The notes beneath the pieces were generated by a model, which was not told the origin of the DNA, did not search any database, and worked only from the letters and a program-made list of their open reading frames with translations. The position numbers and the translations under genes were made by a program. A stretch of 64,000 nucleotides of DNA, taken from the IMG/VR virus record IMGVR_UViG_3300001528_000425, positions 64,001 to 128,000 of that record. One strand, written 5' to 3'. Shown in pieces: positions 4,245 to 46,300 of this stretch; the first letter of the stretch is position 1; every line of letters starts with the position of its first letter. The stretch is from a virus (lineage: Duplodnaviria > Caudoviricetes).

Positions 4245-6731
4245 TTAGTAACCTAACCCACCAGCATTCTCTTCATCTCCACCAGGATTGGTGAGTTTGT
4301 CGAGAGACTTCATCTTCCTATCGAAGTTCTTCAGGAAGAGGGAAGTGTGTACAGCAGTGTCTAGGATCATCTCATCCGTATCCGGGATGTTCGCCAACTG
4401 GTGATAACCGAGGTTTTCCATATAATCCTTGATCATGTCACTCTGTAACGCACCACGCAATGCAGCGAGCTGTTTGCGTTCATCGTCACTCTGTGCCATC
4501 TCATCTGGATAGCGTTTCTGAACAATCTGCTCAACCGAATCCATGAAGGAACGGAGTTCTTCGTAATGCGCTTTACTCGTGGCCACATTCGGCTTCGGAA
4601 GATTGATTTCGAACCCAGCAATAAGCCTTCTGAGTTTGGCATCAACCGAGTCGTCTTTCCTGTCGATATCAGGAGCGAGATCGCTCTCTTTCACGTCCTC
4701 TGTATCCTTGTCTTGCCCAGTCAGAATTTCACGTAATTGTTTCAACAATCCCGCGTGATTCCTTACGTAATTTTGGATAAATTTGCAATTGATCGGATGC
4801 AGCTTGTTTTGCCACAAGCGAACTCTGTTCGAAAACGTGATGTTCGTTGTAGCGACAGAACGTGAGTATTCTGATTCGGACAGTTGGTTCAATTGACTCG
4901 GAGATACGAATAGACCGAGACCAACCCAGTTGTTCAGATTGTCCATCATCGTGGAGTCCGGTTGAGGTGCAGAGCCTCCTCTGGTCTCCGTGTTGACGTT
5001 CAGGTTGTCGTTGGTACCATTGACGTTCCTGGCTTTGATATGGATATGACTGTTCAAGATGCTTTCCGAAGCTTGCTGCAAATTCGTGGTGAATTTGGGA
5101 GCATACTTCAGGATAGCTTTGCGCCGCACCATATCCAGAGTCTGGATCGCATTCTGGTTCTTCTCATCCACGTCAACGTCGATGTGGATATGCTTGGTAG
5201 AGTTTTCGATGGCTGCCATAACGTTAGCTACCACAAAGGTAGTACGCAACGCCAGGATAAATTCGATATCTTCCAGGATGGACTTGCCAGTACCGTTATC
5301 ACGATAATCGAAAGCATAGTACATCATCAATGGTTCCGGAACGAAGATCAGTTTGATCTTGGATTTCCGAAGCAGGTTGTAGAAGATACTCTTACCGATC
5401 GCACTGTGTAAACTGACATCCAGTCCATGCAATCCCATCTTGTCGAGTTTGGACTCGAGGAGATGTTTGACAGCTACGGTAAATACCGTAGAAGTAGCAT
5501 TGAACTGACTCTCTTCCGAGAGCTTCATCATCTGAACAGTTTGAATCGTCTGTGAGCCGTAGGTAGCCTTCATGGCGTTGTACGCCAGTCGTTCTACACT
5601 TGCTGCCGGAGTGAACTGGGCATTCGGATCAGCCTTCAAGGGAAATCCGTCACTACCTGCGATCAAGTAACAACCGATACGCTCATGCGTTCCTGGAATC
5701 ACAGCGGGGATGATAGCTTCCGTTGGCCACTCCACAATAGAGGGCATGTCGTCTTCTTGTAGAAACTGATCCATGATGTCAGACATCGAGAAGATGGGTT
5801 CTCTCGGCCTAACACCAGCTTGATCTTCTCTCGGATCAACGGACGAGATGGATTGTTCCGCAGCTCTCATGATCTCCGTCATACGACGTCTGGTACCAGC
5901 AGTACCTCTTCGTATTTCAGAGATATCACGACTGACGAAGATGGCATCACCACTGTCTTTCAGCAGTTTCATGGAGGATTCTGCCAACCCACTGATCAAC
6001 TTAACACGATCCTTCTCTCCAAGGGCTTCCATGCCAGGAACGACCCCTTCCAGAGACATACTGGCATCACGAAGTAAATCGGTGAATTGCCAATTCTCAG
6101 TAGCAGGATCAAAGTCTGCGAGATCGAGTTGGAAGGATTCCAGTGCCGCATTCTTGGTCGGGTCCCATGCATCCACAACCGAGTTGAGCATACGGTTGGT
6201 GGCCTGTGGTAGGACGATCACGCCGATGGCACCTTTGTCAACCAGAGCAACCCCGATCCACTCCTGAAGTTTTTCTCCGAAGTGTAGTACGTCGTTGAAG
6301 TGATCTCCTACAAGCTGACAAACAGCCTGACGTGTTTCATCGTCGATTGTTTTATCCGTGTTACCGACAGCAACCAAGTCAGTCTGCATGTCGTTCGGAG
6401 AGATGATCGAACTCACCAAGATGAGCTTGGTGAGTGGAATCTCAGGAGACAATGTCCTGAAATTCTTGAGCTTCTCCACGATCGACGCTGTATTGGACGT
6501 GGTATCAAGTAAGGTGGAGTAAAGCGAATACTGATCCTGACGTTCACCAGGATCTTGAACAGCAAATCCAGGCATATTGCTGAGTTCTGCTTTGGAATAG
6601 GAACCGAGATGTTCCGTCAACACTTCAGGAGCTGAAGTGTTGGAAATATCCATCGGATACAGGATAGAAGCCATCTTCAAGAAACGGCTCTTGCTTCGAA
6701 CAACAATATTCGATCCTTGTTCATCTGCCAT
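4245..6731 (-). CDS. Portal protein (phiKZ gp129-like)
   Basis: 828 aa; WPTEAIIPAVIPG..IGCYL and FVPEPLMMYYAFDYRDNGTGKSILED motifs; ALE/SLE/GME prohead-protease-type sites near residues 195-240. Confidence 0.85.
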   Translation of the reverse strand: MADEQGSNIVVRSKSRFLKMASILYPMDISNTSAPEVLTEHLGSYSKAELSNMPGFAVQDPGERQDQYSLYSTLLDTTSNTASIVEKLKNFRTLSPEIPLTKLILVSSIISPNDMQTDLVAVGNTDKTIDDETRQAVCQLVGDHFNDVLHFGEKLQEWIGVALVDKGAIGVIVLPQATNRMLNSVVDAWDPTKNAALESFQLDLADFDPATENWQFTDLLRDASMSLEGVVPGMEALGEKDRVKLISGLAESSMKLLKDSGDAIFVSRDISEIRRGTAGTRRRMTEIMRAAEQSISSVDPREDQAGVRPREPIFSMSDIMDQFLQEDDMPSIVEWPTEAIIPAVIPGTHERIGCYLIAGSDGFPLKADPNAQFTPAASVERLAYNAMKATYGSQTIQTVQMMKLSEESQFNATSTVFTVAVKHLLESKLDKMGLHGLDVSLHSAIGKSIFYNLLRKSKIKLIFVPEPLMMYYAFDYRDNGTGKSILEDIEFILALRTTFVVANVMAAIENSTKHIHIDVDVDEKNQNAIQTLDMVRRKAILKYAPKFTTNLQQASESILNSHIHIKARNVNGTNDNLNVNTETRGGSAPQPDSTMMDNLNNWVGLGLFVSPSQLNQLSESEYSRSVATTNITFSNRVRLWQNKLHPINCKFIQNYVRNHAGLLKQLREILTGQDKDTEDVKESDLAPDIDRKDDSVDAKLRRLIAGFEINLPKPNVATSKAHYEELRSFMDSVEQIVQKRYPDEMAQSDDERKQLAALRGALQSDMIKDYMENLGYHQLANIPDTDEMILDTAVHTSLFLKNFDRKMKSLDKLTNPGGDEENAGGLGY

Positions 6732-11619: not shown

Positions 11620-13209
11620 TTATCTGTAGACGTCTTCGATCTCATCCGCATAATCAGGTTTGATGATATTTCCATCTGTATCGATTTGTACAAATGGATT
11701 CATCGATCCTGTTACGATCGGAGATGAGGAGGGAATGTCCAATACAGACGATACTGACAAATGACTTGGATGCGCCTTGATCAAGTTCGCTGCCACTTTG
11801 GTAGATTTCTTACCGGAGCGTCTCGCTTCGGTTTCGATACTCTCCAGTGATAGGAACCGTTTCAGTCCGATCCCGAGCAACCAGTTGTCATTGTACAGAG
11901 TTGGATTCGGTCGAAGAACTGTTGTCTTACCGATCCACGTCGCCTGCTGACTGGCAGACCGAACGAACTTCGTTACTGCCTTAGGAGTCAGTTCCTCCTG
12001 CTTGCTGTTGATGATCCGATACTGACGAATTGCAATATCACGTACCACCCAACTCATGATCTGGTCCAGTGAACCAAGTTTCTTGTCATACAAGTTGGTC
12101 GGATCGTACGTGACGAGCAGATCGTCGATGTTGTAGAACACCCAATACAGCAGATCGTAGATATCGTTGACATGGATATTTACGTTGGCGAGTTGTTTCT
12201 TTGCTACGGAATCGAGCAATGGGTCTGTCATACGCAGATGTTTCTCCGCGTTATTGTACAGAAGCATGTTGGTTCTCGAATCCGCAGCACCGATATACTT
12301 GCCGAGCGTCACCTTGTAATAAGAAGGATCGGATGACATCACATCCGATATCTTGAACACGGAGTTCTCGGCATAGAGTTTCAAAAGAGACAGGATGACT
12401 CGCCGTTTGTGCATGTCTTTCATGGAGGACTTCAACACGCTGAGATACAAACCATTCTTGAGCATGAAATATTCACGTTCAATGACTTGCACTCCGCTCT
12501 TCTGGAGTCTCTGTTTTTCCTTCTCATCCGGTGAAGGTGGCACCACTCCTGTGATTTCCACTTCTCCAGGGGCGAAGTGATACTTCGCCATCGTGACAGG
12601 GAATCCGTACTTACACAGATGATAGAGGATCAACGGAATCCGTTCCGCTTTCTTACCACCTTTGGTGCCCATGTAGATCTTAGCCGTCACGACGATATCC
12701 CAGTAAGGATTACCAGATATCGCTCGTACCTTACATTTATCCGACTCTCGCCTACCGAATGGCATGGGAACTCGCATCACCTTGACGATAACAGTACCAG
12801 AATCTGTTCGATTGATACCACCTTTCTCCACAATCGGAAACTGCGGATAATAGTCCGTGTTGTTGTATACAACACGATCGTGGAACAGATACGGAACTGC
12901 GTGATGCATGTAATAAGGCATCCCATCGAATTCGAATTCATAACGAAGGATCTTAACTTCGCTGTGACGAATCGGGATGCCTCCTCTGAGGATCGGATTT
13001 GAAACGATGTATTCGATTCGTTCTTCAGGTGTCAGTGCACGATACCCGACATATCGCATCTGATTTCCGAAGAACTCCATGGACTGCTTGAGCACACTGT
13101 CCAGATACAACTCGATATCATCCAGTTTTTCCTTTCGGAAATCGTAGATCATATAGTCGTTGAATTTGGGTAGTTGCTCCTGTAGCTTGCCCATCAGTTC
13201 ATTCCACAT
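11620..13209 (-). CDS. Non-virion RNA polymerase beta subunit, N-terminal part (phiKZ gp123-like)
   Basis: 529 aa; YVGYRALTPEE, LILYHLCKYGF, NLYDKKL and C-terminal HPSHLSVSSVLDIPSSSP..GSMNPFV motifs. Confidence 0.8.
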   Translation of the reverse strand: MWNELMGKLQEQLPKFNDYMIYDFRKEKLDDIELYLDSVLKQSMEFFGNQMRYVGYRALTPEERIEYIVSNPILRGGIPIRHSEVKILRYEFEFDGMPYYMHHAVPYLFHDRVVYNNTDYYPQFPIVEKGGINRTDSGTVIVKVMRVPMPFGRRESDKCKVRAISGNPYWDIVVTAKIYMGTKGGKKAERIPLILYHLCKYGFPVTMAKYHFAPGEVEITGVVPPSPDEKEKQRLQKSGVQVIEREYFMLKNGLYLSVLKSSMKDMHKRRVILSLLKLYAENSVFKISDVMSSDPSYYKVTLGKYIGAADSRTNMLLYNNAEKHLRMTDPLLDSVAKKQLANVNIHVNDIYDLLYWVFYNIDDLLVTYDPTNLYDKKLGSLDQIMSWVVRDIAIRQYRIINSKQEELTPKAVTKFVRSASQQATWIGKTTVLRPNPTLYNDNWLLGIGLKRFLSLESIETEARRSGKKSTKVAANLIKAHPSHLSVSSVLDIPSSSPIVTGSMNPFVQIDTDGNIIKPDYADEIEDVYR

Positions 13210-13234
13210 AGTGTACTACTCCCCCGCTGCGGTA

Positions 13235-14407
13235 TCAAACCGCAGCTTTTACGGTTAACTTTTTCCCACTGAGGAATTTCGTTAAGACGAAGCTCAGGAT
13301 CGCAACTGCCGCTGTACCGATAATCTTAAGCCAGGTTCCTGTGGCTTTTGCTTTCTCGATACTTGCTGCAGCGCGTTCTTTCTCAACACGCGCATCTGCT
13401 TCTTGCAGGATCTTTCTGCTCTTATCGAATTCAATTTGAGCTTCATGGATCTGCTTCCAGGATTGAACCTGTGCTTCAGCAGCTTGTTTCGCTTGCATCT
13501 CTTCTTCCAACTTATTCTTCAGCTTCTTAACTTCAAGCGCATTCCTTTCTTTCTCCGCAGCCATCTCAGCTTTCGCTTGAGCAGAGGCTGCGTCGAGTCT
13601 CTGTTTCAAGTCGTCCACTTTGCGCTGGTGGAGTTCCATTGGAATGGCATTTACCCCATCTGTAAGTGCAGGTTCTCTGGTCCAATTGTCAGTGTCCACC
13701 GAGAGTTTATCGGAGAGTTCCTCTTTGGTTCTCGCCAGATAATACACGGCTCCATTTCGAAGCTGACACGGGACACCGGAATCCAATATAGAGAGATCAA
13801 GGTGGGATTCATTAATGATCTCACTCCCTTGTTTCACTACAATAAAGATTCCATCTTCCTGCCCAGAACAGTTCGTTACAGTCACCCTACAGAAAGCTCC
13901 ACCGATATACGCCCAGCATTCCCGCATTAAACCGGATCGGTCATTTGCAAATACTCGGACGGTAGGTACCAGTCTTGCATCCAACAAGTCATCCAATTCC
14001 GTGAAATCGGCAACTCGCTTGGCGTAGGTATATTCCGCAGAAGCTGGATGCTTTGCGGTGCTGGCATGGAACTTTGTGCAGAGAACCATATCGATCTCTT
14101 TGATAAAGACAGGACCATCTTTCAACAGTCGAACTGGAATCAAGATGGATTCACCGGGAACTTGTTTGTCTTGTTGTGACTTGAGATCATATCGTTCATC
14201 ACCGTTCGCTTCACGACGAATGATCTCGATTTTGGCCGAGTAACTCGGCGCTGATCCGATAGAACGAATTTCCGTTCTGTTGTTGAACCGATCAATCGCG
14301 AAGATCGCATCACAACAATCCGTTGTGATAATCATTTCCTTGTAGAGTCCAACCTGATAATAATCAATTGGACCCATCTTAAAACTGGTGCGCTTAATCT
14401 CGTCCAT
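13235..14407 (-). CDS. Hypothetical protein with C-terminal coiled coil and membrane anchor
   Basis: 390 aa; E/K/A-rich heptads at about residues 258-350, then hydrophobic WLKIIGTAAVAILSFVLTKFL; early promoter upstream. Confidence 0.75.
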   Translation of the reverse strand: MDEIKRTSFKMGPIDYYQVGLYKEMIITTDCCDAIFAIDRFNNRTEIRSIGSAPSYSAKIEIIRREANGDERYDLKSQQDKQVPGESILIPVRLLKDGPVFIKEIDMVLCTKFHASTAKHPASAEYTYAKRVADFTELDDLLDARLVPTVRVFANDRSGLMRECWAYIGGAFCRVTVTNCSGQEDGIFIVVKQGSEIINESHLDLSILDSGVPCQLRNGAVYYLARTKEELSDKLSVDTDNWTREPALTDGVNAIPMELHQRKVDDLKQRLDAASAQAKAEMAAEKERNALEVKKLKNKLEEEMQAKQAAEAQVQSWKQIHEAQIEFDKSRKILQEADARVEKERAAASIEKAKATGTWLKIIGTAAVAILSFVLTKFLSGKKLTVKAAV

Positions 14408-22275: not shown

Positions 22276-22740
22276 TTAGGAGGTCTGGTAATTCCAACGA
22301 CCTTTGCCCAACTGAAGAAAGATCTTGTAAACGTAGGTGTTGAAAAGCTTCCGATTCCTTGGAATTAATTCGTGAGGAAAATTGGAAGTCAATATTTGGT
22401 TCAACTGATCGATTTTACCGTGAGGAATATGCTTGCAGTTACCAAGCATCGTCTTGAACTCCGCTTCCTCCCAATCATTGGCATACGACAAGAACATGAC
22501 GGCACGCAATGACTTGTTCGGCATCTCCTTGTTATCGAGTGCTTTCTCAAGAGCCGCGGCGACAACGATGTAGAGAGAGTCAGGATGTTCGTGGATGTCT
22601 CCCGTTGTCAACTCGCCAGTCGAAGTTGAGGCAACGTTCACGATGATTTGCGGCGCGCCAGCGTGACACCCGATCACAGTCACCACGAGATACAAGATGC
22701 CCGTTAGTAATAAGTAACGCACAATTGAGTTCCTTTTCAT
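22276..22740 (-). CDS. Hypothetical exported or lipoprotein-like protein
   Basis: Basic N-terminus, hydrophobic core and VIG-C lipobox-like site; no obvious RBS. Confidence 0.55.
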   Translation of the reverse strand: MKRNSIVRYLLLTGILYLVVTVIGCHAGAPQIIVNVASTSTGELTTGDIHEHPDSLYIVVAAALEKALDNKEMPNKSLRAVMFLSYANDWEEAEFKTMLGNCKHIPHGKIDQLNQILTSNFPHELIPRNRKLFNTYVYKIFLQLGKGRWNYQTS

Positions 22741-22773: not shown

Positions 22774-23022
22774 ATTCTATTGCTTCCTGTTGACATTCAG
22801 TATTAACCATCCGGACTTCTTGGCAGCGTCAACGTTCCGGACTACCACCGGGAGACGATCGCTTAAATGAGCGTAAAGGATCGTCTGTATATGACAACTC
22901 TACATGTTACCATGTAGGTGGACTCTTTGTCATACCCGGTGGCACGCGTGAGAGAAGCAGGTAGGGCGCTCTCTCACATCGGAAGAGTAGAATCATAAGT
23001 TACATAAAATGTAGCTGCTTAT
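22774..23022 (-). ncRNA. Candidate structured RNA A (unclassified)
   Basis: Nested inverted repeats: ATTCTA/TAGAAT, CCACCGGG/CCCGGTGG, AGACGATC/GATCGTCT, TATGACAA/TTGTCATA, GTGAGAGA/TCTCTCAC; GUAA tetraloop on the minus strand. Confidence 0.55.
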
Positions 23023-23028
23023 AATTTC

Positions 23029-23793
23029 TTACAGATCCGATGTTTCGTCCTCTTCTTTGTGATCATCGGATAATTTCCTCGCTTCGCTGAATAGTTCGAA
23101 TGCGACATTCTCCAATTGAGAGATATACGGGGGAAGAACTTCCCAGTTGTTTTCTCTCAGGTTGAAATCGTATTTAGGTTCCTGACCTAAAACGAACTTA
23201 CCACGATCGAGTATCGTCATGTCGATCTCCCATTTCTTAGCAAGTGCCTCATGGAAGATCTGCGTAAGAGTCGGAGTTAGCAGATGGTTGGGTCCTCCGT
23301 TGAGTAAGAGAATGGCTATGTGCCAAATGATGGTACCGATGAAGAGTTTGTCATCGGCATCCAAATCACCTGTAACTTTCGTTACTTGCTTCACATACCA
23401 TTCATCCGCCTGTTGATCGAGATCCGTGATCACTTGAGATGTTCCAGCGATCTCTCGCTTTCGCATAAGCATGTACTCTCTCTTGACATCGAACGCCAAT
23501 CGATCGATGACATCGGACGTCAGCTGAACGATATCCGGAAATACTTCCATAACTTCGTTCAACTTGATCAGCATATCGCCATATTCGTTAGACGATATCA
23601 CTGGCTGCCAGCCAATGTCTTTACATTTGACATAGATACAAGATCTCATCGTTCCAAGTATCGTACGTCTGGCATGTTTTACCAATACGTAATCACCGTC
23701 ATTACATGTTTCATCGATCGTGAGTAAGTCCTTCAACTCATCGATCTCGTGTACATCCAACATCTTGGCGTTTTCCCATGGGAAATGTTTCAT
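23029..23793 (-). CDS. Hypothetical early protein
   Basis: 254 aa; RBS AAGGAG; promoter variant upstream. Confidence 0.75.
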   Translation of the reverse strand: MKHFPWENAKMLDVHEIDELKDLLTIDETCNDGDYVLVKHARRTILGTMRSCIYVKCKDIGWQPVISSNEYGDMLIKLNEVMEVFPDIVQLTSDVIDRLAFDVKREYMLMRKREIAGTSQVITDLDQQADEWYVKQVTKVTGDLDADDKLFIGTIIWHIAILLLNGGPNHLLTPTLTQIFHEALAKKWEIDMTILDRGKFVLGQEPKYDFNLRENNWEVLPPYISQLENVAFELFSEARKLSDDHKEEDETSDL

Positions 23794-23828
23794 ATCAGTC
23801 TCCTTAGTTTGTGTATGGCATCACTATT

Positions 23829-23836
23829 GTAATCTA
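23829..23836 (-). promoter_or_regulatory. Early promoter variant TAGATTAC
   Basis: Minus strand TTCACACA-TAGATTAC, with the same TTCA-N4 extension as the exact sites. Confidence 0.6.
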
Positions 23837-23847
23837 TGTGTGAAAGA

Positions 23848-23882
23848 AGGAAGAGATGTGCTATTGTAGCACATCTCTTCCT
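23848..23882 (-). terminator. Intrinsic terminator
   Basis: AGGAAGAGATGTGCTA/TAGCACATCTCTTCCT 16-bp stem. Confidence 0.8.
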
Positions 23883-23916
23883 GTAGGTGATTGTGATTCT
23901 ATCAGATCTCTTCGTC

Positions 23917-24498
23917 TTACTTCACTTGATAATCCTCATGAGGAAGCATGGAGAAAACCATTCCCTTAACGGGTATTTGAATGGGTTGGTGCTGATGCTT
24001 GGGAGGAATAACAGTGACATAGTAGATGATCGGACGGCGGTTGGTATGTTCCCATTTAGTAGCATGCTTGCCGGCATCATCCGTGGAGAGTTCAACCTGA
24101 ACATCTCCATAGTTCGGGAACACGACCTTAAACATGTATCGGATGCATCCGTTCTCATCGCGATCCCCGTAGCGACACTGATCCACTACATGAATGGGAT
24201 AGCTTTTGCCATTGAAAACAATGGTGTCGGTGGACAACTGATCAAATCCACGGAACACGGATCGATGTAATAACATGGACCCGAAATCCTGATGAGTACG
24301 GTAATTGCAACCATTCAGATAGTTCCTGATCTCAGGAACTTTCTTGAAGTTCTCGAGTGAATCGCGGATATTCTTCAGCAACAGATTCAGAACCATATTG
24401 CCGTATTCCTTGCGCTCGAGGTTAGCTTTGGTTACTTGGTTGATGGGTTTGGTGGTGGTTAAAATACGGTTGAAGAGAGATCTGATAGAAATTGCCAT
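23917..24498 (-). CDS. Hypothetical protein
   Basis: 193 aa ORF in a minus-strand operon. Confidence 0.7.
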   Translation of the reverse strand: MAISIRSLFNRILTTTKPINQVTKANLERKEYGNMVLNLLLKNIRDSLENFKKVPEIRNYLNGCNYRTHQDFGSMLLHRSVFRGFDQLSTDTIVFNGKSYPIHVVDQCRYGDRDENGCIRYMFKVVFPNYGDVQVELSTDDAGKHATKWEHTNRRPIIYYVTVIPPKHQHQPIQIPVKGMVFSMLPHEDYQVK

Positions 24499-24527
24499 AC
24501 GCCCTGTTCGCTCCTATATTGGGCTGG

Positions 24528-24938
24528 TTAATGAAGTAAGACGAAACGACCACTTGGATCGTTCTGTAACGAATACCACCAAGATTGGATGACATGTTCC
24601 CAGATGTCATATCGATCGGCAAGTCCACTGCCGATCTTGGATACTAGAAACACAGTATCATCCGGAGAGTTCTTGACGAACTTCTCAAATTTTCTCACTT
24701 CAAGGTTGAAGATAGGCCAATACTCATCGACTTTGAAGGGATCTCGATCTTCACGTCGCGGTTGCTTCTTGGTAACAAATCCGTACGTGTTGGGGAGGTG
24801 TCTCAATGCGGCTGCCCCTCCGGTGCCTTTATGAAGAAGATTGTCTCCATACACGAAGATCCAATTAGGATGCTCTCGCAGAATTTCTTCCGTTACTTTC
24901 AGTGCACCGTTTGACAGCAATGCCAAAGTTTGATCCAT
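24528..24938 (-). CDS. Macrodomain-like phage protein
   Basis: IFVYGDNLLHKGTGGAAAL..NTYGFVTKK and SKIGSGLA glycine loops resemble macro-fold phage proteins. Confidence 0.6.
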   Translation of the reverse strand: MDQTLALLSNGALKVTEEILREHPNWIFVYGDNLLHKGTGGAAALRHLPNTYGFVTKKQPRREDRDPFKVDEYWPIFNLEVRKFEKFVKNSPDDTVFLVSKIGSGLADRYDIWEHVIQSWWYSLQNDPSGRFVLLH

Positions 24939-24977
24939 ATGGCATACACTCCTTGATAATAGAGATTGTGTGGATAG

Positions 24978-25011
24978 AACGATAGGAGCGATACGAGTCG
25001 CTCCTATCGTT
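24978..25011 (-). terminator. Terminator downstream of topoisomerase A
   Basis: AACGATAGGAGCGA/TCGCTCCTATCGTT. Confidence 0.75.
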
Positions 25012-25016
25012 ATTTG

Positions 25017-27266
25017 TCATTTGCTCGGTGTCCAGATCTCGCTCCGTCTTGCGTACGGGACAAGTTCCTGATCGCCGATAAGTTTCCTGGTAAGCTGCAG
25101 TCTAAGGCAGTTCCCTGGTTTCACGAATTTGGTTACATCCGGAAGATAGACGTGTCTGACCGGACACCGACTCCTGACCAGATCTGGTACAGAGAACATG
25201 ATCGGTCGATTGGCATCATAGATACCGATTACCTTCCAAGTCCCAACCACGATCTTTGTCAATTTCCCAGCCTTACGGACACGATCGATCTTGATCGTAT
25301 TCATCTCAGCTGTATTACAGTGGATCACAACATAGTCGTCAACTTCCAAAGGATCAACGAAGCACACATCCTGGATGGCCATCCTGGAAACATTGGCTCC
25401 TTTGCGCACGATATCCGCGGTAACAGGGATACGTTCGACCGTCCCTTTCTTGTGAACCACAAGGAAATCGTTGACAACAGGGATGATCTCAGCATCATCA
25501 GATCCTCGCACTGCCAATCCTTCCAAAGCATAAATGCCGTTGTTCCGGAAAACTACAGTATTCTTTGCTTTGTGATTCAACCGATAGACACCAGTTGCCT
25601 TGAACTGCTTCGGATGCTCCACAGGCATATCCTCTTGGATACCATATTCGTTGGTAACATAAGTACGGTTGAGCGCCGTATAGAGATGGATGTCAACATT
25701 GTCAACACCGAATGCTTTAATGAGTTCGTCGAACTCACCCATCTCTTCCACTTGGGTATAACCGGTTCCTTTGTATCGTACATATCCCTTGTAGGAAGGT
25801 ATGATGCACTTGCGCGGGAACCTCGGACTATACTTGGCATCGATCGCCTTCACCTCTTCGATGATCTGTTCCGGGATCTTCAAGAACCTCTGCTGGAGTT
25901 CCTTGATATCAGCAGATACCTTCTTACTGCGCTCAACGAGTTTGTCCTTACCTTCACGGGTAAGTTGACCGAGCTGTAAGCTGACCAGGAACTGCGCCTG
26001 ATAAACTGTAAGAGCTTGATCTTTGAACGCTTTGCATAGACGAAGGATCGCTTCGTCGTCAGATTTAGAAGAGTTGATGATCTGGTAAACTTTATCAGAA
26101 TGTCCTGCAACAATGATCTTAGCCATCAGCTGACGATATTCCAGAACCAAGTTCACCTGTTTGATTTTCAGCTCTCCAAGGATCGCACTGTAACGTTCCG
26201 TGTACCAAATGTTCAGCAGATCAAAAGGATTTGCCTTAATCATCTTGTCATGTTTATCCATGAACAAAGGACAAGGTTTCCAGGCTTCAGAGAATCCACA
26301 TGCCTTCTTCAATTCAGCAAGTACATCGAACGGGTTCTCACCTCGACGTAATGTGAACACAAGATTCCCAATGGATTCTCCATGGGTCTTGCCCGCATGA
26401 TCATCGACAGAACTGAAATGCTTGGTAATAAATCCGTCTTTCTCTTTCTGAGCATTGCCCAGTTTCAAGAAGATCTTCATCAAGTCTTCACCTGGAGCAA
26501 CCGATTGGATGGAGATCGTCGTTGGGGTGATCTTCAAAGTACCATCCGTAACGATCTTACAATCAAATTCTCCTTTCCTGTAGGCGGATACCAATTCGTC
26601 TCGATTTCTGATCGTACAATACGACGGGAAATCTGGAACCAAATAAGGTACCAATGTGTGGAGCTTGGACTGCCAGTTGGAAGTCGAAGTTCTTAACTCC
26701 ACATACTTCCGCGTCAGTTGACAAAGAGAATGGATATCGAGTGCCGATATATCCGTCTTGTATCCGATACCGATACCGAAGGTACCGGCCATCAGGGCAT
26801 ACGGAATAACCGGGACGAAGTACAACGGTTCCTCTCCTTCATCTGTTTCACATCGAACATAGACGAGTGTTCGAAGGTTGATGTTATTGAAGAACACATC
26901 TCTGGCAAATTCAGCCGAATGAACGTCGACGTAACGTGCGGCACTCGGTGGTTCTCCAGAATAAGTTCCAACACCCGAATCCGAAAAGATCAGTGGAATG
27001 ATGTTGGAGAAGGGCTGACACATAGTGATGATAGCATCATTGATACTCTGATCGCCATGCGGATGGATAGCACCCACTTGACCACCAAGTTTCACCACCT
27101 TCATCTTGGATGTACCAGTCTTGGCCATCCACAAGATCCTTCGATGGATCGGTGTTAAGCCGTCGATCACCAAAGGTAGTCGACGTTTGATAATGAAGTT
27201 GGCAAACGAACTGATGTTATCTTCGATCGATTCGGATGTCGAAACTTCGCTCTTGTATTCGCTCAT
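25017..27266 (-). CDS. gyrA: Type IIA DNA topoisomerase subunit A (GyrA/ParC-like)
   Basis: RRLPLVIDGLTPIHRRIL, HPHGD, catalytic SAARY, GIGIGY and PDFP motifs; beta-rich CTD. Confidence 0.88.
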   Translation of the reverse strand: MSEYKSEVSTSESIEDNISSFANFIIKRRLPLVIDGLTPIHRRILWMAKTGTSKMKVVKLGGQVGAIHPHGDQSINDAIITMCQPFSNIIPLIFSDSGVGTYSGEPPSAARYVDVHSAEFARDVFFNNINLRTLVYVRCETDEGEEPLYFVPVIPYALMAGTFGIGIGYKTDISALDIHSLCQLTRKYVELRTSTSNWQSKLHTLVPYLVPDFPSYCTIRNRDELVSAYRKGEFDCKIVTDGTLKITPTTISIQSVAPGEDLMKIFLKLGNAQKEKDGFITKHFSSVDDHAGKTHGESIGNLVFTLRRGENPFDVLAELKKACGFSEAWKPCPLFMDKHDKMIKANPFDLLNIWYTERYSAILGELKIKQVNLVLEYRQLMAKIIVAGHSDKVYQIINSSKSDDEAILRLCKAFKDQALTVYQAQFLVSLQLGQLTREGKDKLVERSKKVSADIKELQQRFLKIPEQIIEEVKAIDAKYSPRFPRKCIIPSYKGYVRYKGTGYTQVEEMGEFDELIKAFGVDNVDIHLYTALNRTYVTNEYGIQEDMPVEHPKQFKATGVYRLNHKAKNTVVFRNNGIYALEGLAVRGSDDAEIIPVVNDFLVVHKKGTVERIPVTADIVRKGANVSRMAIQDVCFVDPLEVDDYVVIHCNTAEMNTIKIDRVRKAGKLTKIVVGTWKVIGIYDANRPIMFSVPDLVRSRCPVRHVYLPDVTKFVKPGNCLRLQLTRKLIGDQELVPYARRSEIWTPSK

Positions 27267-27427
27267 GAATCCTCCGGTTTGTCATGAAAATTTTACTGTA
27301 TTAAATAGTGTGATTATGTTTAATTTTACCACTATCAAGGTAACCCTACTGCAAAACAATATTTCATTCTATTTTGCACTAAGATGTAAGCTATACGCTA
27401 CTCAATTAGTGGGTTATTTACATTAAC

Positions 27428-27435
27428 GTAATATA
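27428..27435 (-). promoter_or_regulatory. Early promoter TATATTAC upstream of the gyrA-like gene
   Basis: Exact motif, followed by a ~160 nt AT-rich leader. Confidence 0.7.
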
Positions 27436-27465
27436 TGTCCTTTTCTCACATGAAGTATAATAAGT

Positions 27466-27496
27466 CAACTCCACTGACAATAAGTCAGTGGAGTTG
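27466..27496 (-). terminator. Terminator
   Basis: CAACTCCACTGAC/GTCAGTGGAGTTG. Confidence 0.75.
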
Positions 27497-27500
27497 GTAT

Positions 27501-27989
27501 TCATCGTTCAACGATCACTTCAGGTGAAAATCCGAGTATCTTATCTTCGAAGAGAGAAGAGAAGGAAGCTGCTGCAGGTGGTAATTTATCCAATAGATTG
27601 GTATCGATTCCCATTTGACTGAACATCAGGTGATAGGATACCACCTGACCAGACCCGAGATCATCTTCCCCATTCAACTGAGATGCATCTTCCACCACGA
27701 TCTCCAGTGCTCCAGATGCCGTCTTGACTTCGGAAGCGACTCCTACTTTGACATAGAGGAATAGCGTCTGATTAGGACCAAAGAAATCTTCCAGCATATC
27801 CTGGAATGTAAACTTAACTGGTTTCAATTTCGGATAACGGGCCATCAGAAGAGCTTCAACATCCTTGCGACCAAGATCGATTTCAGCTTCTTGGACGATA
27901 TCGATCAATTTACCAACCGATGAAGGAGAGATCCGTCTACCGTAGACAGGAAGGGATCTCTCTGGTGCACGATCTATAACGAATAGCAT
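27501..27989 (-). CDS. Hypothetical protein
   Basis: 162 aa; RBS AGGAGG; CATGCTATAG motif upstream. Confidence 0.75.
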   Translation of the reverse strand: MLFVIDRAPERSLPVYGRRISPSSVGKLIDIVQEAEIDLGRKDVEALLMARYPKLKPVKFTFQDMLEDFFGPNQTLFLYVKVGVASEVKTASGALEIVVEDASQLNGEDDLGSGQVVSYHLMFSQMGIDTNLLDKLPPAAASFSSLFEDKILGFSPEVIVER

Positions 27990-28028
27990 AACGACCTCCT
28001 ATTTGCTATAGCATGTAGAGATAAGCTA

Positions 28029-28077
28029 ACAAAAAATAAAGAAAGGTGTACGTAGGGAGTGGCCACTCCCTACGTAC
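28029..28077 (-). terminator. Terminator (perfect 30-bp palindrome) with TTTATTTTTTGT tail
   Basis: GTACGTAGGGAGTGG|CCACTCCCTACGTAC at 28048-28077. Confidence 0.85.
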
Positions 28078-28100
28078 GTCATAAGCGCTTATGATGATTG

Positions 28101-28538
28101 TTATTTGTCGGGTTCTGATTGCTGAAAGGCCTCCATCAGAGAGAATGTCTCCTTCTTTCCTTGTTCATCAACCAACGTCACAACCACGTCTTCGAGACGA
28201 TACCCCAATACCTTAAGGGTTGCCTCTTCCGCTCGATTGATTGTGATGTTTCCCTTTTGCAATGCTCTTGTCAGGTTACTACCTGTTGAGTCGATTTTAG
28301 TGGAATGTTCGTTCAATACCTCCAAGGCGTATTTACGGCATCTTCCACTAAAGTACTCTCGAGTAATTCGCTTTCTAACAAATATCAAGCGCAAGATTCT
28401 GTCCAGAAAACTTCTGGACTCTCGAACATCGGCTTCGGTGAACAACGGAGTTCCGCTCGTTCTCAGAGCTTCATCCACATCCACCTTAGGACCAGCGAAC
28501 ATGTTCGAGAATGACTCGTCGATGCTTGGTATTCGCAT
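28101..28538 (-). CDS. Hypothetical protein (resembles a conserved small phiKZ-family protein)
   Basis: 145 aa; FLDRILRLIF...GSNLTRAL..NIT pattern; RBS GAGG. Confidence 0.65.
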   Translation of the reverse strand: MRIPSIDESFSNMFAGPKVDVDEALRTSGTPLFTEADVRESRSFLDRILRLIFVRKRITREYFSGRCRKYALEVLNEHSTKIDSTGSNLTRALQKGNITINRAEEATLKVLGYRLEDVVVTLVDEQGKKETFSLMEAFQQSEPDK

Positions 28539-28582
28539 GGGATGTGTTCCTCGTGGGTATGAGGGTTGTTAGTGTTCTTCTC

Positions 28583-29407
28583 TCATTTTAATCTTTTCTT
28601 GCGATATCTCCCTGTTATCACGTTGTAAGTTGTGTCAAGTAAACTACTGATGGAAGGATGAACGCCAGAGCGTTCCACCTGGATCAACAGTACATACCAT
28701 GTCAGGAACTGAACTCGATCTCGAATAAGCTCGATCGGTTCCCCGGTATGCCATCGATAGACCCACTCCACCTGGGTATCAAACCATTCAAAGATCCCAT
28801 TCCTGTCGAGTAGGATCTCATTTGGTTTATCCATCCGTTCGTTTAACTTCGATCGGAAATACAGATCTCTGCATGCAGATAGAAGCTTAGCCTCCGTTGG
28901 GATAATTACCCCATCTCTGGTGGTCAACAATGCTACCAAGGATTTTATCCGCTTCAGCATGTTGAGAGTACCAAGCTCGTGCTTGATGTTCATCAATAAC
29001 TGATGCATGATCAAATCTTTCGGGATGGTGGTAAAGTCCAACACCTGGTCGATCAAATGATCGTCTCCTATCCGATCTTTCGGTTCACTTCGTAATATAT
29101 ACTCCAAGAGGATATGATACTGATGCAAACGTTCCGATAGGATCTTTCGAATGATTCGATGATCGGCAGCATAGACTACCGTAGCCGTGATTGCTTCCAG
29201 TAGTGGATATGGAGGACGACTGATTGAGGTATCATCTACCCAGACATAAACTTGCCTTGCATAGATCTGCTCAGCGGTGATTTGTTCTGCAAGTAGATGA
29301 TACGCTCTATGGTCGAGCTTCTCTGGTTCCATCTGTGAGGTATCTGCAGGTTTCTTGAGTTCTCCGATCAGGTCTTGTAATAGACCTCGTCGAAAGATCG
29401 CAGTCAT
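28583..29407 (-). CDS. Hypothetical protein
   Basis: 274 aa; starts 3 nt after the gyrB-like stop. Confidence 0.7.
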   Translation of the reverse strand: MTAIFRRGLLQDLIGELKKPADTSQMEPEKLDHRAYHLLAEQITAEQIYARQVYVWVDDTSISRPPYPLLEAITATVVYAADHRIIRKILSERLHQYHILLEYILRSEPKDRIGDDHLIDQVLDFTTIPKDLIMHQLLMNIKHELGTLNMLKRIKSLVALLTTRDGVIIPTEAKLLSACRDLYFRSKLNERMDKPNEILLDRNGIFEWFDTQVEWVYRWHTGEPIELIRDRVQFLTWYVLLIQVERSGVHPSISSLLDTTYNVITGRYRKKRLK

Positions 29408-29409
29408 GA

Positions 29410-36975: not shown

Positions 36976-37007
36976 GTTGATTGTCTCCTTGAGATGATTT
37001 TGGTGAG

Positions 37008-38381
37008 TTACAATAAGATATCTTCCAGCTTTAAATTAATAGTCTGGATTTTGGTACCATGCATGTTCTTCATCGAGATCAGCATGTAGGTTGAGGTGAT
37101 CGAGATCGACTCGATACCGATGGCCCTGGCGTTCAGTTTACGATACCGATCTCCACAGCAAGCAAAGCACAATCCATCGACTGTTTCACAGGTCTGGGGA
37201 GAACGCACTCGAACTTTCTTGCCACGGAATTGATCCGCGTTATGTTTGGTGATCTTGGCTTCACCTTCCCCTGTCAACGCAATGCGATCGATAAAGAGAT
37301 TGATGTCACAGATCTTAAAATCGATCCACAACGCACGTTTGGTTCCACAATCCGCTTCCGTGATCGCCAGGTCCTGGAAGATACGCATGAGGAACTTGGT
37401 TTCAGCGCCGCCTTTGGCGGTTTCCGTACCACGGCTGTAAGAACCCTTACGGATCTCGTTGCAGATCGTTGGGAACGCCTCTTTGGTCCATCCCTCCATC
37501 AGGGAGTTCGGGACAAACTCATACTTACCAGCACTGACATCGAATGCATCGATACAACCGACAGTGAGGAAGAGTTTCTTGCGGTGAACATCGTAGGATT
37601 TTGAGCCAAGTGCATTGAAGAAACGAACCGACGGGTCGTCTCCAAGGAACTCTTTGTCAAGGCGTTGAAGCTCGTTCTCCAACTGAACAGTGACCAGAGG
37701 ATCGTTCATCTCTCCCTGATGTTCGGCGATAAACTTTGCTTTCAGCTTCGGAACTTCCGGGTTAGTCAACAAACTCTTCTCAGTGAGAGTTGGAGTGCAA
37801 AGTTCCGTCATGTGGTTGAGGAAGAACACATTGTCCATGAAGTGTTGAAGTTCATCGACCGAGATTAGCTCCTCGCCAGCTGCATCTGCGATGATACTGC
37901 CGATCGCACCAGGTGACCAACGATTGTTCTGGTAAGGGATCTTTCCATCGAATGGAAATCCGAGGCAAATCATGTTCTCGATATACCGTCCAACTGTAGT
38001 CACAACAGGAGGACTATTCTTCCAGATGGTATCCTCGTTGAAGACCAGTTTGAATACATCCTTCCGACCGAGTAATGGGCGTCCATACTCGTTGAGGTAG
38101 ATGAATTCATAGGTCTCTTCATCCGGGTACTTAGCTTCGATCCAACCCATATATTTCTTGTTGAGTCGGACGATAGCACAACTGCTCGGTGAGTTCACCG
38201 ATACTGCCGGGATAATGATCTTGGTTCCAGGGCTTAGATCATTCGGTATCTCAGACGGATCGATCTCAACTTCGTTGGTGTAAGATTCCATCACGGTGAG
38301 AGCTTCCAGTAACCAATCTCTGGTAGAGATACAATTCTTGGCTCTCAGGAGGAAGATGTGCTGAAATGGATTCAGTTTCAT
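37008..38381 (-). CDS. Virion RNA polymerase beta-prime subunit part (phiKZ gp80-like)
   Basis: TTVGR, SLMEGW, RKGSYSRGTETAKGG (bridge helix), DCGT, VRSPQTC..LCFACCG (Zn site) and MKNMHG (trigger loop). Confidence 0.9.
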   Translation of the reverse strand: MKLNPFQHIFLLRAKNCISTRDWLLEALTVMESYTNEVEIDPSEIPNDLSPGTKIIIPAVSVNSPSSCAIVRLNKKYMGWIEAKYPDEETYEFIYLNEYGRPLLGRKDVFKLVFNEDTIWKNSPPVVTTVGRYIENMICLGFPFDGKIPYQNNRWSPGAIGSIIADAAGEELISVDELQHFMDNVFFLNHMTELCTPTLTEKSLLTNPEVPKLKAKFIAEHQGEMNDPLVTVQLENELQRLDKEFLGDDPSVRFFNALGSKSYDVHRKKLFLTVGCIDAFDVSAGKYEFVPNSLMEGWTKEAFPTICNEIRKGSYSRGTETAKGGAETKFLMRIFQDLAITEADCGTKRALWIDFKICDINLFIDRIALTGEGEAKITKHNADQFRGKKVRVRSPQTCETVDGLCFACCGDRYRKLNARAIGIESISITSTYMLISMKNMHGTKIQTINLKLEDILL

Positions 38382-39346
38382 CGGTTATCTCCTTCCGTAT
38401 AAAGCTCTTGGATCAGATCGTAGAATTGCTTCCGAACGTCTGCTCCCCAGGTAGCGGTTTTGTTCGAGATGCGAACCATCAAGGATTCTTTGGTATCCTT
38501 CAACCCGTGTTCCATCACGACAAGACAAAGTCGTTCCGAGGCAGAAGGATTCTTGACTGGTTGTTTTTCCCAGTACTCGAAGAATACAGGAGATGACTCC
38601 TTGAACCCCTTGGGGATCATAAGTGTATCCGAACCATCATCCGCAGAAGCAACTTCCTCCAGCAACGGAGAACGAGTCAGCTTCTTGAGAACAGGAGCAA
38701 ATAGAGTTGGAGCATTCAGAGTGACCTGACGGAGCTTCGAGCTTCGTTCGATCATATCTTCCTTCCCAGTCAAAAGCTGAAGGATATGATCTACTTTGGC
38801 GATATCAACTGTCTCAGCAACAGAAGGATCTCCAAGTTGTTCGATGTCCGTCAAGATAGCAGCGATATGCTCGATGAACGCAGGAGTATTCTCCAAGATA
38901 TTCACCTGTCGATTGATGTAGTCCCAGCTATCATCCAGTGGCATCTTCGCAGCGATATTCGCCACGATAGAGATCAGAGCATCTACAGGTTCTTCCACAT
39001 ACTCCTGTACGATCTCGATGAGATCCTGTCGATCCTTGATCAATTCAGTGAAGTTATCACGATCGAACTTAGTTCGAAGCGCGATAGCAAGTTGTATCAT
39101 CGTTACGTCGTTGCAGATATCGAATTCATCCTGATTGATGATGATTCCGAGTTCGACCAACTCACCAAGCAACAAAGACATGGCTTGTTGTCTCAGGTAT
39201 CTGGGAGTGACCTCTTCAACCGTAACTTCCAGAAGATACTCCTGTCTCGCCAGATAATCCGCGATATAAGGGCTAATACCCATACATTTCTGGATCACCT
39301 CACGATCATAATCAGCAGTCTCCGGTAACGTGTTAACGATTGCCAT
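38378..39346 (-). CDS. Hypothetical protein
   Basis: 322 aa; stop overlaps the start of the gp80-like gene. Confidence 0.75.
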   Translation of the reverse strand: MAIVNTLPETADYDREVIQKCMGISPYIADYLARQEYLLEVTVEEVTPRYLRQQAMSLLLGELVELGIIINQDEFDICNDVTMIQLAIALRTKFDRDNFTELIKDRQDLIEIVQEYVEEPVDALISIVANIAAKMPLDDSWDYINRQVNILENTPAFIEHIAAILTDIEQLGDPSVAETVDIAKVDHILQLLTGKEDMIERSSKLRQVTLNAPTLFAPVLKKLTRSPLLEEVASADDGSDTLMIPKGFKESSPVFFEYWEKQPVKNPSASERLCLVVMEHGLKDTKESLMVRISNKTATWGADVRKQFYDLIQELYTEGDNR

Positions 39347-39542
39347 ATATGTCGTTTCCTTGAAAAGGTTGAAACTTAGTGTTCTAAAGGATGGTTCTCT
39401 TCCTGAAGAAGATATTTCTATCTCCTGGAGGTAGATACAAATGATATTCTAGATCTTGTATTCTTTTACATGAACTGGAGTGAGCCTCAAGCGAACGAAA
39501 GTTCTTTTCTTTCTTTATATTTTCTTTCTTTTCTTTAAGAAA

Positions 39543-39647
39543 TAGATATTTATTATTAGGATATATCAAGGATATTTAGATAAGAGAGTACTTAAGTACT
39601 CTCTTAGATGAATATACTTAGATATATCTTAGTAATAAATATATCTA
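39543..39647. repeat. AT-rich ~105-bp imperfect palindrome with a perfect 26-bp core
   Basis: Core TAAGAGAGTACTT|AAGTACTCTCTTA (39581-39606); arms TAGATATTTATTATTAGGATATATC versus GATATATCTTAGTAATAAATATATCTA. Confidence 0.85.
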
Positions 39648-39750
39648 AACGTGCGCGCGCGTGTAACACGCGGTCTAAGGAATAGAGAAATTTATCTTCT
39701 TGTTATTTTTTACAGAAACTCATAATGTTATGTAATCTTGGAAAATGATT

Positions 39751-40054
39751 CGATCAGTGATGAGCATTGAACCGATTGGATGCATGAACAACTGATCGTG
39801 AGCCGTGAGATGCAAATATTTGCTTTAAGCCATGGTCATCCGAGACACGGAGTTCTAACTACACACAACGCACGTTCGTAAAGTACAGTCAATCATTGGT
39901 TGTTCTATATGTTGTGTTGATGAGTGTGTGCTGTTGACGTTGTCCCGTCGTGTCCCCGATGATTTGAATGAACGATCTGTTCACACAACAGATCAGGTCG
40001 ATCGATCGTGGCTTCCGATCATGTTGATCGTTTAGTCGGTTCACTTCTCATCAC
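39751..40054 (+). ncRNA. Candidate structured RNA or leader E upstream of RNase H (~300 nt)
   Basis: GTGATGAG..TGAACCGATTG (39757-39778) pairs with TAGTCGGTTCA..CTCATCAC (40033-40054) using G-U pairs on +; internal hairpins. Confidence 0.55.
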
Positions 40055-40089
40055 AGATAACAACAAACTCAACATGGGAGGAGATATCC

Positions 40090-40542
40090 ATGAGTATGCT
40101 ACCCCGAGTGATCCTCTACTCGGACGGTTCTCACAGAAGAACCTTCCATCGTGGAGGTTATGCTGGATTGTTAACAACCAGCGATAAGAACTTCCAGTTG
40201 GTCTTTGGTAATGAAGATCATGCTGGCAATGGACGTATGGAGCTGAGTGCTGTTGTCAGTTCACTTCGCTACCTCACAGAACCATGTCATGTGGAAGTGA
40301 TCAGCGATGCTACTTATGTTGTCAACGGCATCAACCTTTGGGTAAAAGGTTGGGCTCTGAACAACTGGAGAACCGCACAGAATAAACCTATCGCCAACAT
40401 CGATCTCTGGGTGGAATTATGGAACATGATGCAAGTGCATCACATCCGAGCTACCTGGGTGAAAGGTCATGCTGGGCATCCTGAGAACGAACTTGTGGAC
40501 TACGTTGCCAACTGGTCTGCTGGCGTACCTATCGAGTGGTAA
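40090..40542 (+). CDS. rnhA: Ribonuclease HI
   Basis: YSDGS, NGRMELSA, SDATYVVNG, ANIDLW and WVKGHAGHPENELVD motifs. Confidence 0.95.
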   Translation: MSMLPRVILYSDGSHRRTFHRGGYAGLLTTSDKNFQLVFGNEDHAGNGRMELSAVVSSLRYLTEPCHVEVISDATYVVNGINLWVKGWALNNWRTAQNKPIANIDLWVELWNMMQVHHIRATWVKGHAGHPENELVDYVANWSAGVPIEW

Positions 40543-41230: not shown

Positions 41231-41305
41231 AACCTCGTGGTGTAATGGTGTGCACAACTGGTTTTGATCCAGTTAGTCTAAGTTCGAATCTTAGCGAGGT
41301 TGCCA
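41231..41305 (+). tRNA. tRNA-Gln (anticodon UUG)
   Basis: Acceptor AACCTCG/CGAGGTT, D arm GTGT/GCAC, anticodon arm ACTGG-TT TTG AT-CCAGT, T arm CTAAG-TTCGAAT-CTTAG, G73 and encoded CCA. Confidence 0.92.
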
Positions 41306-46045: not shown

Positions 46046-46103
46046 TTCTCTTCCCCCGTTATATAGAACGGAATGGAGTAGATGATAACCGAGGCATTTG
46101 ATT

Positions 46104-46235
46104 ATGGATGATTCGTCCGATCATATGCAGATATTCGATCAAAATGTATCCGAAATAAGAGCTGCAACGGATCTCATCGAGAGAATCATTGCAAACATCG
46201 GAACACCGATCGAATCTTTGCCGATTTCTCAGTAA
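46104..46235 (+). CDS. Possible 43-aa acidic small protein
   Basis: MDDSSDHMQIFDQNVSEIRAATDLIERIIANIGTPIESLPISQ; GAGG upstream; fills the intergenic gap. Confidence 0.4.
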   Translation: MDDSSDHMQIFDQNVSEIRAATDLIERIIANIGTPIESLPISQ

Positions 46236-46300
46236 GAGAATCGCATTGGATTAAATTCTACGCCACCGCACTACTGTATAACTGCTGGGAGAAATTAAAC

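Follow-up and report, generated by a model that had tools for sequence, protein, structure and literature searches.

Four long intergenic gaps of a phiKZ-like phage genome, here called A to D, fold into nested, end-paired structures, and we read them, with moderate confidence, as separate modules with a common design rather than as one RNA system: B appears to hide a small protein gene, A and D look like long mRNA leaders, and C appears to hold a noncoding RNA gene. The stretch analysed ('the window') comprises 64,000 nucleotides (nt), positions 64001-128000 of a complete virus record of 235,559 nt (IMGVR_UViG_3300001528_000425), and encodes homologues of the phiKZ-type multisubunit RNA polymerase (phiKZ gp80 and gp74; PHROG 2962) and of the phiKZ helicase and DNA polymerase. 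Its polymerase subunit gene at 37008-38381 is ∼30% identical to those of cultured phages and 43-51% identical to those of metagenomic relatives. The relatives, cited below by L and G numbers, were compared at syntenic loci, using this polymerase gene, a conserved gene for a protein of 170 amino acids (aa) and the RNase H gene as anchors; contig L003 matches the window at 99.98% identity. Cultured phages gave no match in nucleotide searches, and exact-pattern scans of viral contigs gave nothing, or chance matches besides one known locus.

A first interpretation, made from the sequence alone (the sequence-only reading), had described the four gaps as a set of large structured RNAs. They lie where it placed them, and all fold better than dinucleotide shuffles, against which the fold z scores given here were calculated (better of the two strands unless a strand is named). 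With its borders, the scores were −5.1 for A, −9.7 for B, −4.1 for C (−3.5 and −4.1 for the domains C1 and C2) and −2.5 for D; tighter borders brought D to −4.1 and −5.6. The folds of A, B and C2 are real, with z scores of about −4 to −10, and those of C1 and D are weaker or depend on the interval folded. The proposed end-to-end stems were also borne out, being perfect in B (14 bp, 34194-34207/34594-34607) and C1 (13 bp, 35005-35017/35214-35226), 9-11 bp long in C2, and long but interrupted in A and D. As had been suggested, the elements share no primary sequence (five domains compared all-against-all, alignment z at most 1.7), and they are no known Rfam motif. On the window, the Rfam covariance models gave only a tRNA at gathering score, and otherwise only weak generic hairpin matches at expectation values (E) up to 5. 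The families covered without a match include GOLLD, ROOL, OLE, RNase P, SRP, 6S, riboswitches, ribozymes and group I/II introns, and the homologous regions from L001, L014 and L018 likewise had no Rfam match. Likenesses noticed by eye to tmRNA, RNase P, SRP, 6S and the lysine and cobalamin riboswitches were dropped for want of a model match, and ARAGORN at a relaxed threshold found no tRNA-like domain with a tag open reading frame (ORF) in A, C, D and four homologues.

Fold strength has to be read against the background of this genome. Of the 240-nt windows, z ≤ −4 is reached by 2.3% in coding and by 21% in noncoding sequence (coding median best-strand z, −1.5), and many of these noncoding windows probably owe their stability to terminator hairpins. 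The statement that most long gaps are folded holds within this stretch; genome-wide it does not, since only 11 of 25 gap segments were at z ≤ −4 once perfect hairpins had been removed (10 shuffles per segment).

The strongest case for a noncoding RNA gene is C. On the minus strand, a promoter ending at 35526 is followed in order by C2 (35243-35525), C1 (35005-35226), the anti-Shine-Dalgarno-like motif CUCCUGU (34986-34992) and a terminator-like hairpin of 17 bp (34940-34981), and the same order of promoter, C2, end-closed domain, CUCCUGU and terminator is seen in L014, L001 and L018. C was taken at first to be a single end-closed element; it is instead two end-closed domains in tandem, probably carried, as this layout suggests, by one stand-alone middle or late transcript of ∼590 nt. 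No conserved ORF was seen in C.

C2 is, judged by sequence comparison, a conserved noncoding RNA domain of ∼285 nt. Its predicted architecture consists of a terminal stem, a hairpin with a CGCC loop, small hairpins and a long rod with a GGUUA loop. Alignment found sequence homologues in L059 (z = 11.6), L019 (z = 6.3) and L014 (z = 5.2), and a second type of C2, with the same architecture and a near-identical terminal-stem sequence, occupies the same site in L001, L004, L018 and L017. Both loop sequences are present in all seven: the first hairpin loop has CGCC (position 29-36), and the rod is capped by GGUUA (147-175). The window and L059 versions are 62% identical, and the base of the first hairpin is changed on both sides between them. 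Pair changes were counted within the L001-type group, where both sides are changed in 28 of 88 pairs; shuffles gave 13 and slid controls 3-9. With an alignment fitted to the structure and only five sequences contributing, this count leans in favour. The promoter strand folds better in 10/10 syntenic C2 sequences, including four more-distant ones, and in this genome it has 11 G-U pairs versus 1 on the other strand.

C1, the variable end-closed domain of ∼220 nt, has no homologue detectable by alignment against the relatives. A long-range 13-bp helix was also reached in 4/60 coding controls, so that C1 is weak from this genome alone and its support comes from the relatives, where end-closed domains of 140-345 nt with stems of 16-18 bp stand in its place in L014, L001 and L018. 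L017 lacks a C1-type domain, yet keeps CUCCUGU. The motif precedes the terminator in all four of these relatives, whereas CUCCU lies upstream of just 2 of the 74 strong minus-strand hairpins of this genome. In L017 the C terminator is immediately followed (∼13150-14070) by what looks by eye like a tRNA gene split by a group I intron, with an HNH gene next to it on the far side.

Element B (34194-34607, minus strand) had been taken for an intergenic gap. It holds a 48-aa ORF (34356-34502) that is preceded by GGAGGAG and has three paralogues elsewhere in the genome, at 55-57% identity; G001, a relative, also has four copies. Identity by codon position is 0.61/0.73/0.33. The RNA would span ∼415 nt around this ORF; homologues were found in L014-L016 (E = 1e-16 to 7e-16), and terminal stems of 13-15 bp close all four copies in this genome. 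The ribosome-binding site is predicted to be masked, being unpaired for 0.10-0.35 of the time in the four copies, and upstream of it a hairpin of 14-15 bp (34521-34554) has both sides changed in 12 of 15 pairs among five copies. Conservation with compensatory changes, found for B and C2, is in favour of the sequence-only reading. On this comparative evidence B is a multi-copy mRNA module for a putative basic protein of 47-48 aa. We suggest that it works in the manner of type I toxin mRNAs: with its ends paired and its ribosome-binding site masked, the full-length RNA would be stable and silent until refolded or trimmed. Directly behind B lies a hydrophobic, basic 29-aa ORF (34073-34162, minus strand; a called gene in L003), with AAGGAG upstream that is predicted to be accessible; this peptide resembles a membrane peptide more than the 48-aa protein does.

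A, C and D, but not B, start at one class of promoter. A matrix trained solely on the C and D promoters of the relatives was used to rank 471,062 genome positions, and the window sites came 1st (C, 35526-35553, minus strand), 11th (A, 23003-23030, minus strand) and 13th (D, 39705-39732, plus strand). The C promoter, a T-tract and ACA followed by TATATTATG, has the same motif at the same site in relatives, and the A site shares the TATG ending of the class. TATG at the start site is the late promoter motif. Near −22, behind an A-rich run, stands a TAC motif that resembles the middle promoter of phiKZ (PMC8244752). For B a motif scan found a different, early-type promoter motif, TACATTAC (34626-34634, minus strand), and TATATTAC stands upstream of two B copies in G001. 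Since A, C and D fall in one promoter class, their co-expression is plausible from sequence, and B would probably be expressed separately.

D (39753-40058, plus strand) is a long end-closed fold with z = −4.1 on the plus strand and 19 G-U pairs there versus 7 on the minus strand. From the end of its promoter at 39732 to the start of the RNase H gene (40090-40542, plus strand; PHROG 531, E = 1e-39) there are 358 nt in which no terminator was detected, whilst phiKZ leaders are typically 31-40 nt long (PMC8244752). In five relatives a matching promoter lies 291-392 nt ahead of the RNase H gene, and 6 of 11 syntenic D regions reach z ≤ −2.7 on the RNase H strand, one of the six with its promoter hairpin included. 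Sequence similarity is marginal (alignment z up to 2.9); L014 has a similar nested fold at the D position with an alignment z of only about 2.5. D probably serves the RNase H mRNA as its 5′ leader; the position and promoter of D are conserved, its sequence barely. In L001 (8166-8238) and L018 (6816-6998), tRNA genes on the same strand as RNase H separate the palindrome described below from the leader at the D position, which places D within a tRNA-rich unit in both relatives. In this genome ARAGORN found only two tRNA genes, one of them a tRNA-Gln(TTG) at 41231-41305, downstream of the RNase H unit. Upstream of RNase H, the distant relatives L021 (7402-7750) and L028 (5501-5950) appear by eye to have a common motif-rich fold unlike D; in the L021 region it is the opposite strand that gives by far the better fold (z = −9.9).

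A (22774-22993, minus strand) is an end-closed multibranch fold with z = −5.1 on the minus and −4.9 on the plus strand. It is followed by an orphan gene for a 154-aa protein (22276-22740, minus strand), for which no relative was found and whose hydrophobic N-terminus (maximum hydropathy, 2.11), with a lipobox-like VIGC at its end, suggests a lipoprotein. Both A and D run into their downstream genes with no terminator detected, and both look, from their layout, like long 5′ leaders. No homologue of A was detected in the relatives searched. G001 has a structured gap of ∼300 nt (L044, ∼6065-6370) that is syntenic with A and has no detectable similarity to it.

Beyond the four elements first described, a fifth structure, D0, lies upstream of the D promoter (39546-39642). 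It is a near-perfect AT-rich palindrome in the 200-nt window of lowest GC content in the genome (25.5%), and an alternating purine-pyrimidine tract follows at 39643-39675. AT-rich stretches with palindromes recur at this site in relatives, and D0 is probably a DNA element, a candidate origin or packaging signal.

How might these modules work? In C the stems are free to vary whereas the CGCC and GGUUA loops are fixed, and C thus most likely binds protein in trans, perhaps as a stable platform or a sponge. The CUCCUGU tail could also pair with AGGAG ribosome-binding sites. Protein binding has the best claim of any single role, at just short of an even chance; pairing through the tail appears much less probable, slightly behind all other functions taken together. 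The leaders A and D could set the stability or timing of their own mRNAs, and processing may release them. End-pairing would have arisen convergently, to shield long untranslated RNA from nucleases and R-loops, which would fit a phage group in which transcription is separated from translation; R-loop pressure from this uncoupling has been proposed for nucleus-forming phages (PMC13648698). We infer the transcription, ends, processing and partners of all the elements. A bolder proposal, which we put forward as rather unlikely, is that C is an undescribed, clade-wide trans-acting RNA gene of putative gut or rumen phiKZ-like phages, made together with D and A by the phage middle/late polymerase, in which a fixed protein-binding C2, an exchangeable cargo C1 and an anti-Shine-Dalgarno tail would steer ribosomes, mRNA export or particle assembly.

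Several observations weigh against the picture of separate modules around an RNA gene C. Profile and covariance model searches with the window-type and L001-type C2 groups did not detect each other; the L001-type model found L017 (E = 3e-7) and neither the window-type group nor the more distant loci. This limits the claim of one family, and the putative homology of the two groups depends on their common position, on the sequence of the terminal stem and on the two short loops. C2 is also conserved no better than the neighbouring protein (62% nucleotide versus 63% amino acid identity). A folds slightly better on the plus strand in a second comparison, so its strand assignment rests on the promoter. 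Finally, the R-loop argument is borrowed, since the nuclear shell gene was not detected: a single query, phiKZ gp54 (ChmA), gave no match, although other core genes were missed likewise and the sensitivity of this query is therefore low.

The sequence-only reading itself survives best among the alternatives, in a form in which A, C and D are excised at one stage, each as a discrete RNA with paired ends, and serve jointly as decoys or scaffolds that counter RNA-sensing defences of the host, with B in a dual function. The common promoter class and end-pairing would suit it, tRNA genes in the D unit of L001 and L018 would allow processing, and phiKZ does make RNAs derived from 5′ untranslated regions (UTRs) (PMC10914365). 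We nevertheless judge it unlikely. The elements do not co-occur as a set: B was found in the records of one relative out of five and A in none, whilst C2 and a D-position leader are present in most syntenic loci. They share no sequence or motif, and B is a protein-coding module with another class of promoter; A and D look like leaders rather than noncoding RNAs. An RNA-handling partner gene was not found either: PF00078 (reverse transcriptase) gave no match in the complete genome, where the controls matched, and neither did PF05731 (Ro60, TROVE).

Less probable again is that D and D0 form a replication origin at which the neighbouring RNase H would act on D as a structured primer or R-loop RNA, as at the ColE1 or T4 origins. 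D0 lies in the AT-richest part of the genome, AT-rich palindromes recur at its site in relatives, the GC skew, negative at first, becomes slightly positive around genome position 100 kb, and a dedicated primase is lacking in these phages (PMC13648698). However, D is directed away from D0, the two are separated by tRNA genes or ORFs in some relatives, and the skew also tracks gene strand and changes sign several times.

It is also improbable, and somewhat more so, that the folds other than B are neutral or DNA-level features, such as remnants or cruciforms, that have no RNA function. The frequent stability of noncoding windows in this genome, the lack of sequence homologues for A and C1 and the marginal similarity of D would all be accommodated by this explanation; it is opposed by the preference of C2 for the promoter strand, in all ten sequences and in G-U pairs, by the compensatory changes and by the conserved promoter and terminator.

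The gene divergent from C (35589-36101, plus strand) encodes the 170-aa protein used as an anchor, which occurs in 384 clusters at E up to 0.001. Its structural model is good (predicted local distance difference test score, pLDDT, 87), a long helical hairpin with only generic helical matches, and Pfam, PHROG and structure gave no assignment beyond weak hints of a small terminase. Its identity as a small terminase was not established: PF11053 had no match, and neither the deeper alignment nor the model matched a terminase. That C is a packaging or virion RNA beside such a gene, oligomerizing through its CGCC and GGUUA loops like the phi29 packaging RNA (pRNA), is very improbable, for although all seven sequences allow three invariant pairs (GCC/GGU), the promoter is late-type and the neighbour shows weak feature similarity to a cluster with the T4 small-terminase family in 13% and one PHROG match at E = 0.086, cognate loops pair no better than swapped ones (permutation p = 0.66) and PF11053 has no match in the genome.

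Other features of the region are listed for completeness. A 72-aa gene lies between C and B (34673-34891, minus strand); it is a called gene in L003 and has no Pfam match. At 36127-36184, between convergent genes, there is a perfect 26-bp inverted repeat, by pattern a bidirectional terminator, flanked by promoter-like sites on both strands. Further gaps reach z scores of −4 to −8 with perfect hairpins removed, at 46046-46300 of the window and at genome positions 1-336, 194332-194620, 204375-204858 and 233783-234162.

Very little has been explored of the RNA biology of nucleus-forming jumbo phages, in which untranslated RNA must stay stable and move between compartments. An RNA gene that keeps its site in phages with no more than 43-51% identity in the polymerase subunit would give a handle on this biology, with the practical limit that phage and host are uncultured.

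The elements can be set beside several known RNAs. The prohead RNA of phi29 has two conserved, partly complementary loops, one with GGUU. C2 resembles it in having two conserved loops of partial complementarity with GGUU in one; it differs in that the single candidate for loop-loop pairing, three invariant pairs, shows no covariation, the phage group is another one and any link to packaging is only putative. Without loop covariation and with a neighbouring protein whose fold has no terminase match, a prohead-RNA reading of C2 is not supported. Features in common with retron msr-msd RNA are short hairpins on the 5′ side, a long rod and a terminal inverted repeat, which here closes B, C1 and C2. 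Since the genome has no detected reverse transcriptase and no Ro60 (PF05731), the retron and bacterial Y RNA readings fail.

Closer in phage group are the noncoding RNA candidates of phiKZ, 5′UTR_gp40 (196 nt), 3′UTR_PHIKZ298 and 17 UTR-derived candidates (PMC8545117, PMC10914365), which are, like the present elements, leader-derived or intergenic; the elements here are 220-590 nt long and end-closed, and have no sequence match, or match to the narrow model, in phiKZ. GOLLD and ROOL are also large structured phage RNAs, often near tRNA genes, ROOL having no known protein partner (bioRxiv 10.1101/2024.12.08.627333), but neither matched here in Rfam, C2 is ∼285 nt versus >800 for many GOLLD RNAs, and no pseudoknot is supported here. 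Judged against Rfam, C is a good candidate for a new phage noncoding RNA gene; a further 10,006 candidate motifs are listed in PMC10690425. B comes closest to the hok and aapA type I toxin mRNAs (PMC6733600), with which it shares a small ORF, pairing of 5′ and 3′ ends, a predicted masked ribosome-binding site and several copies per genome; its ORF is, as in such mRNAs, shorter than 60 aa and under purifying selection. Unlike Hok and AapA, the 48-aa protein is basic (charge +6) and not hydrophobic (maximum 19-residue hydropathy, 0.61). As it has no hydrophobic membrane helix and no antisense RNA is known, we do not file B as a type I toxin. B adds instead a family of small-protein mRNAs in which the predicted translational silencing is toxin-like and the protein is not.

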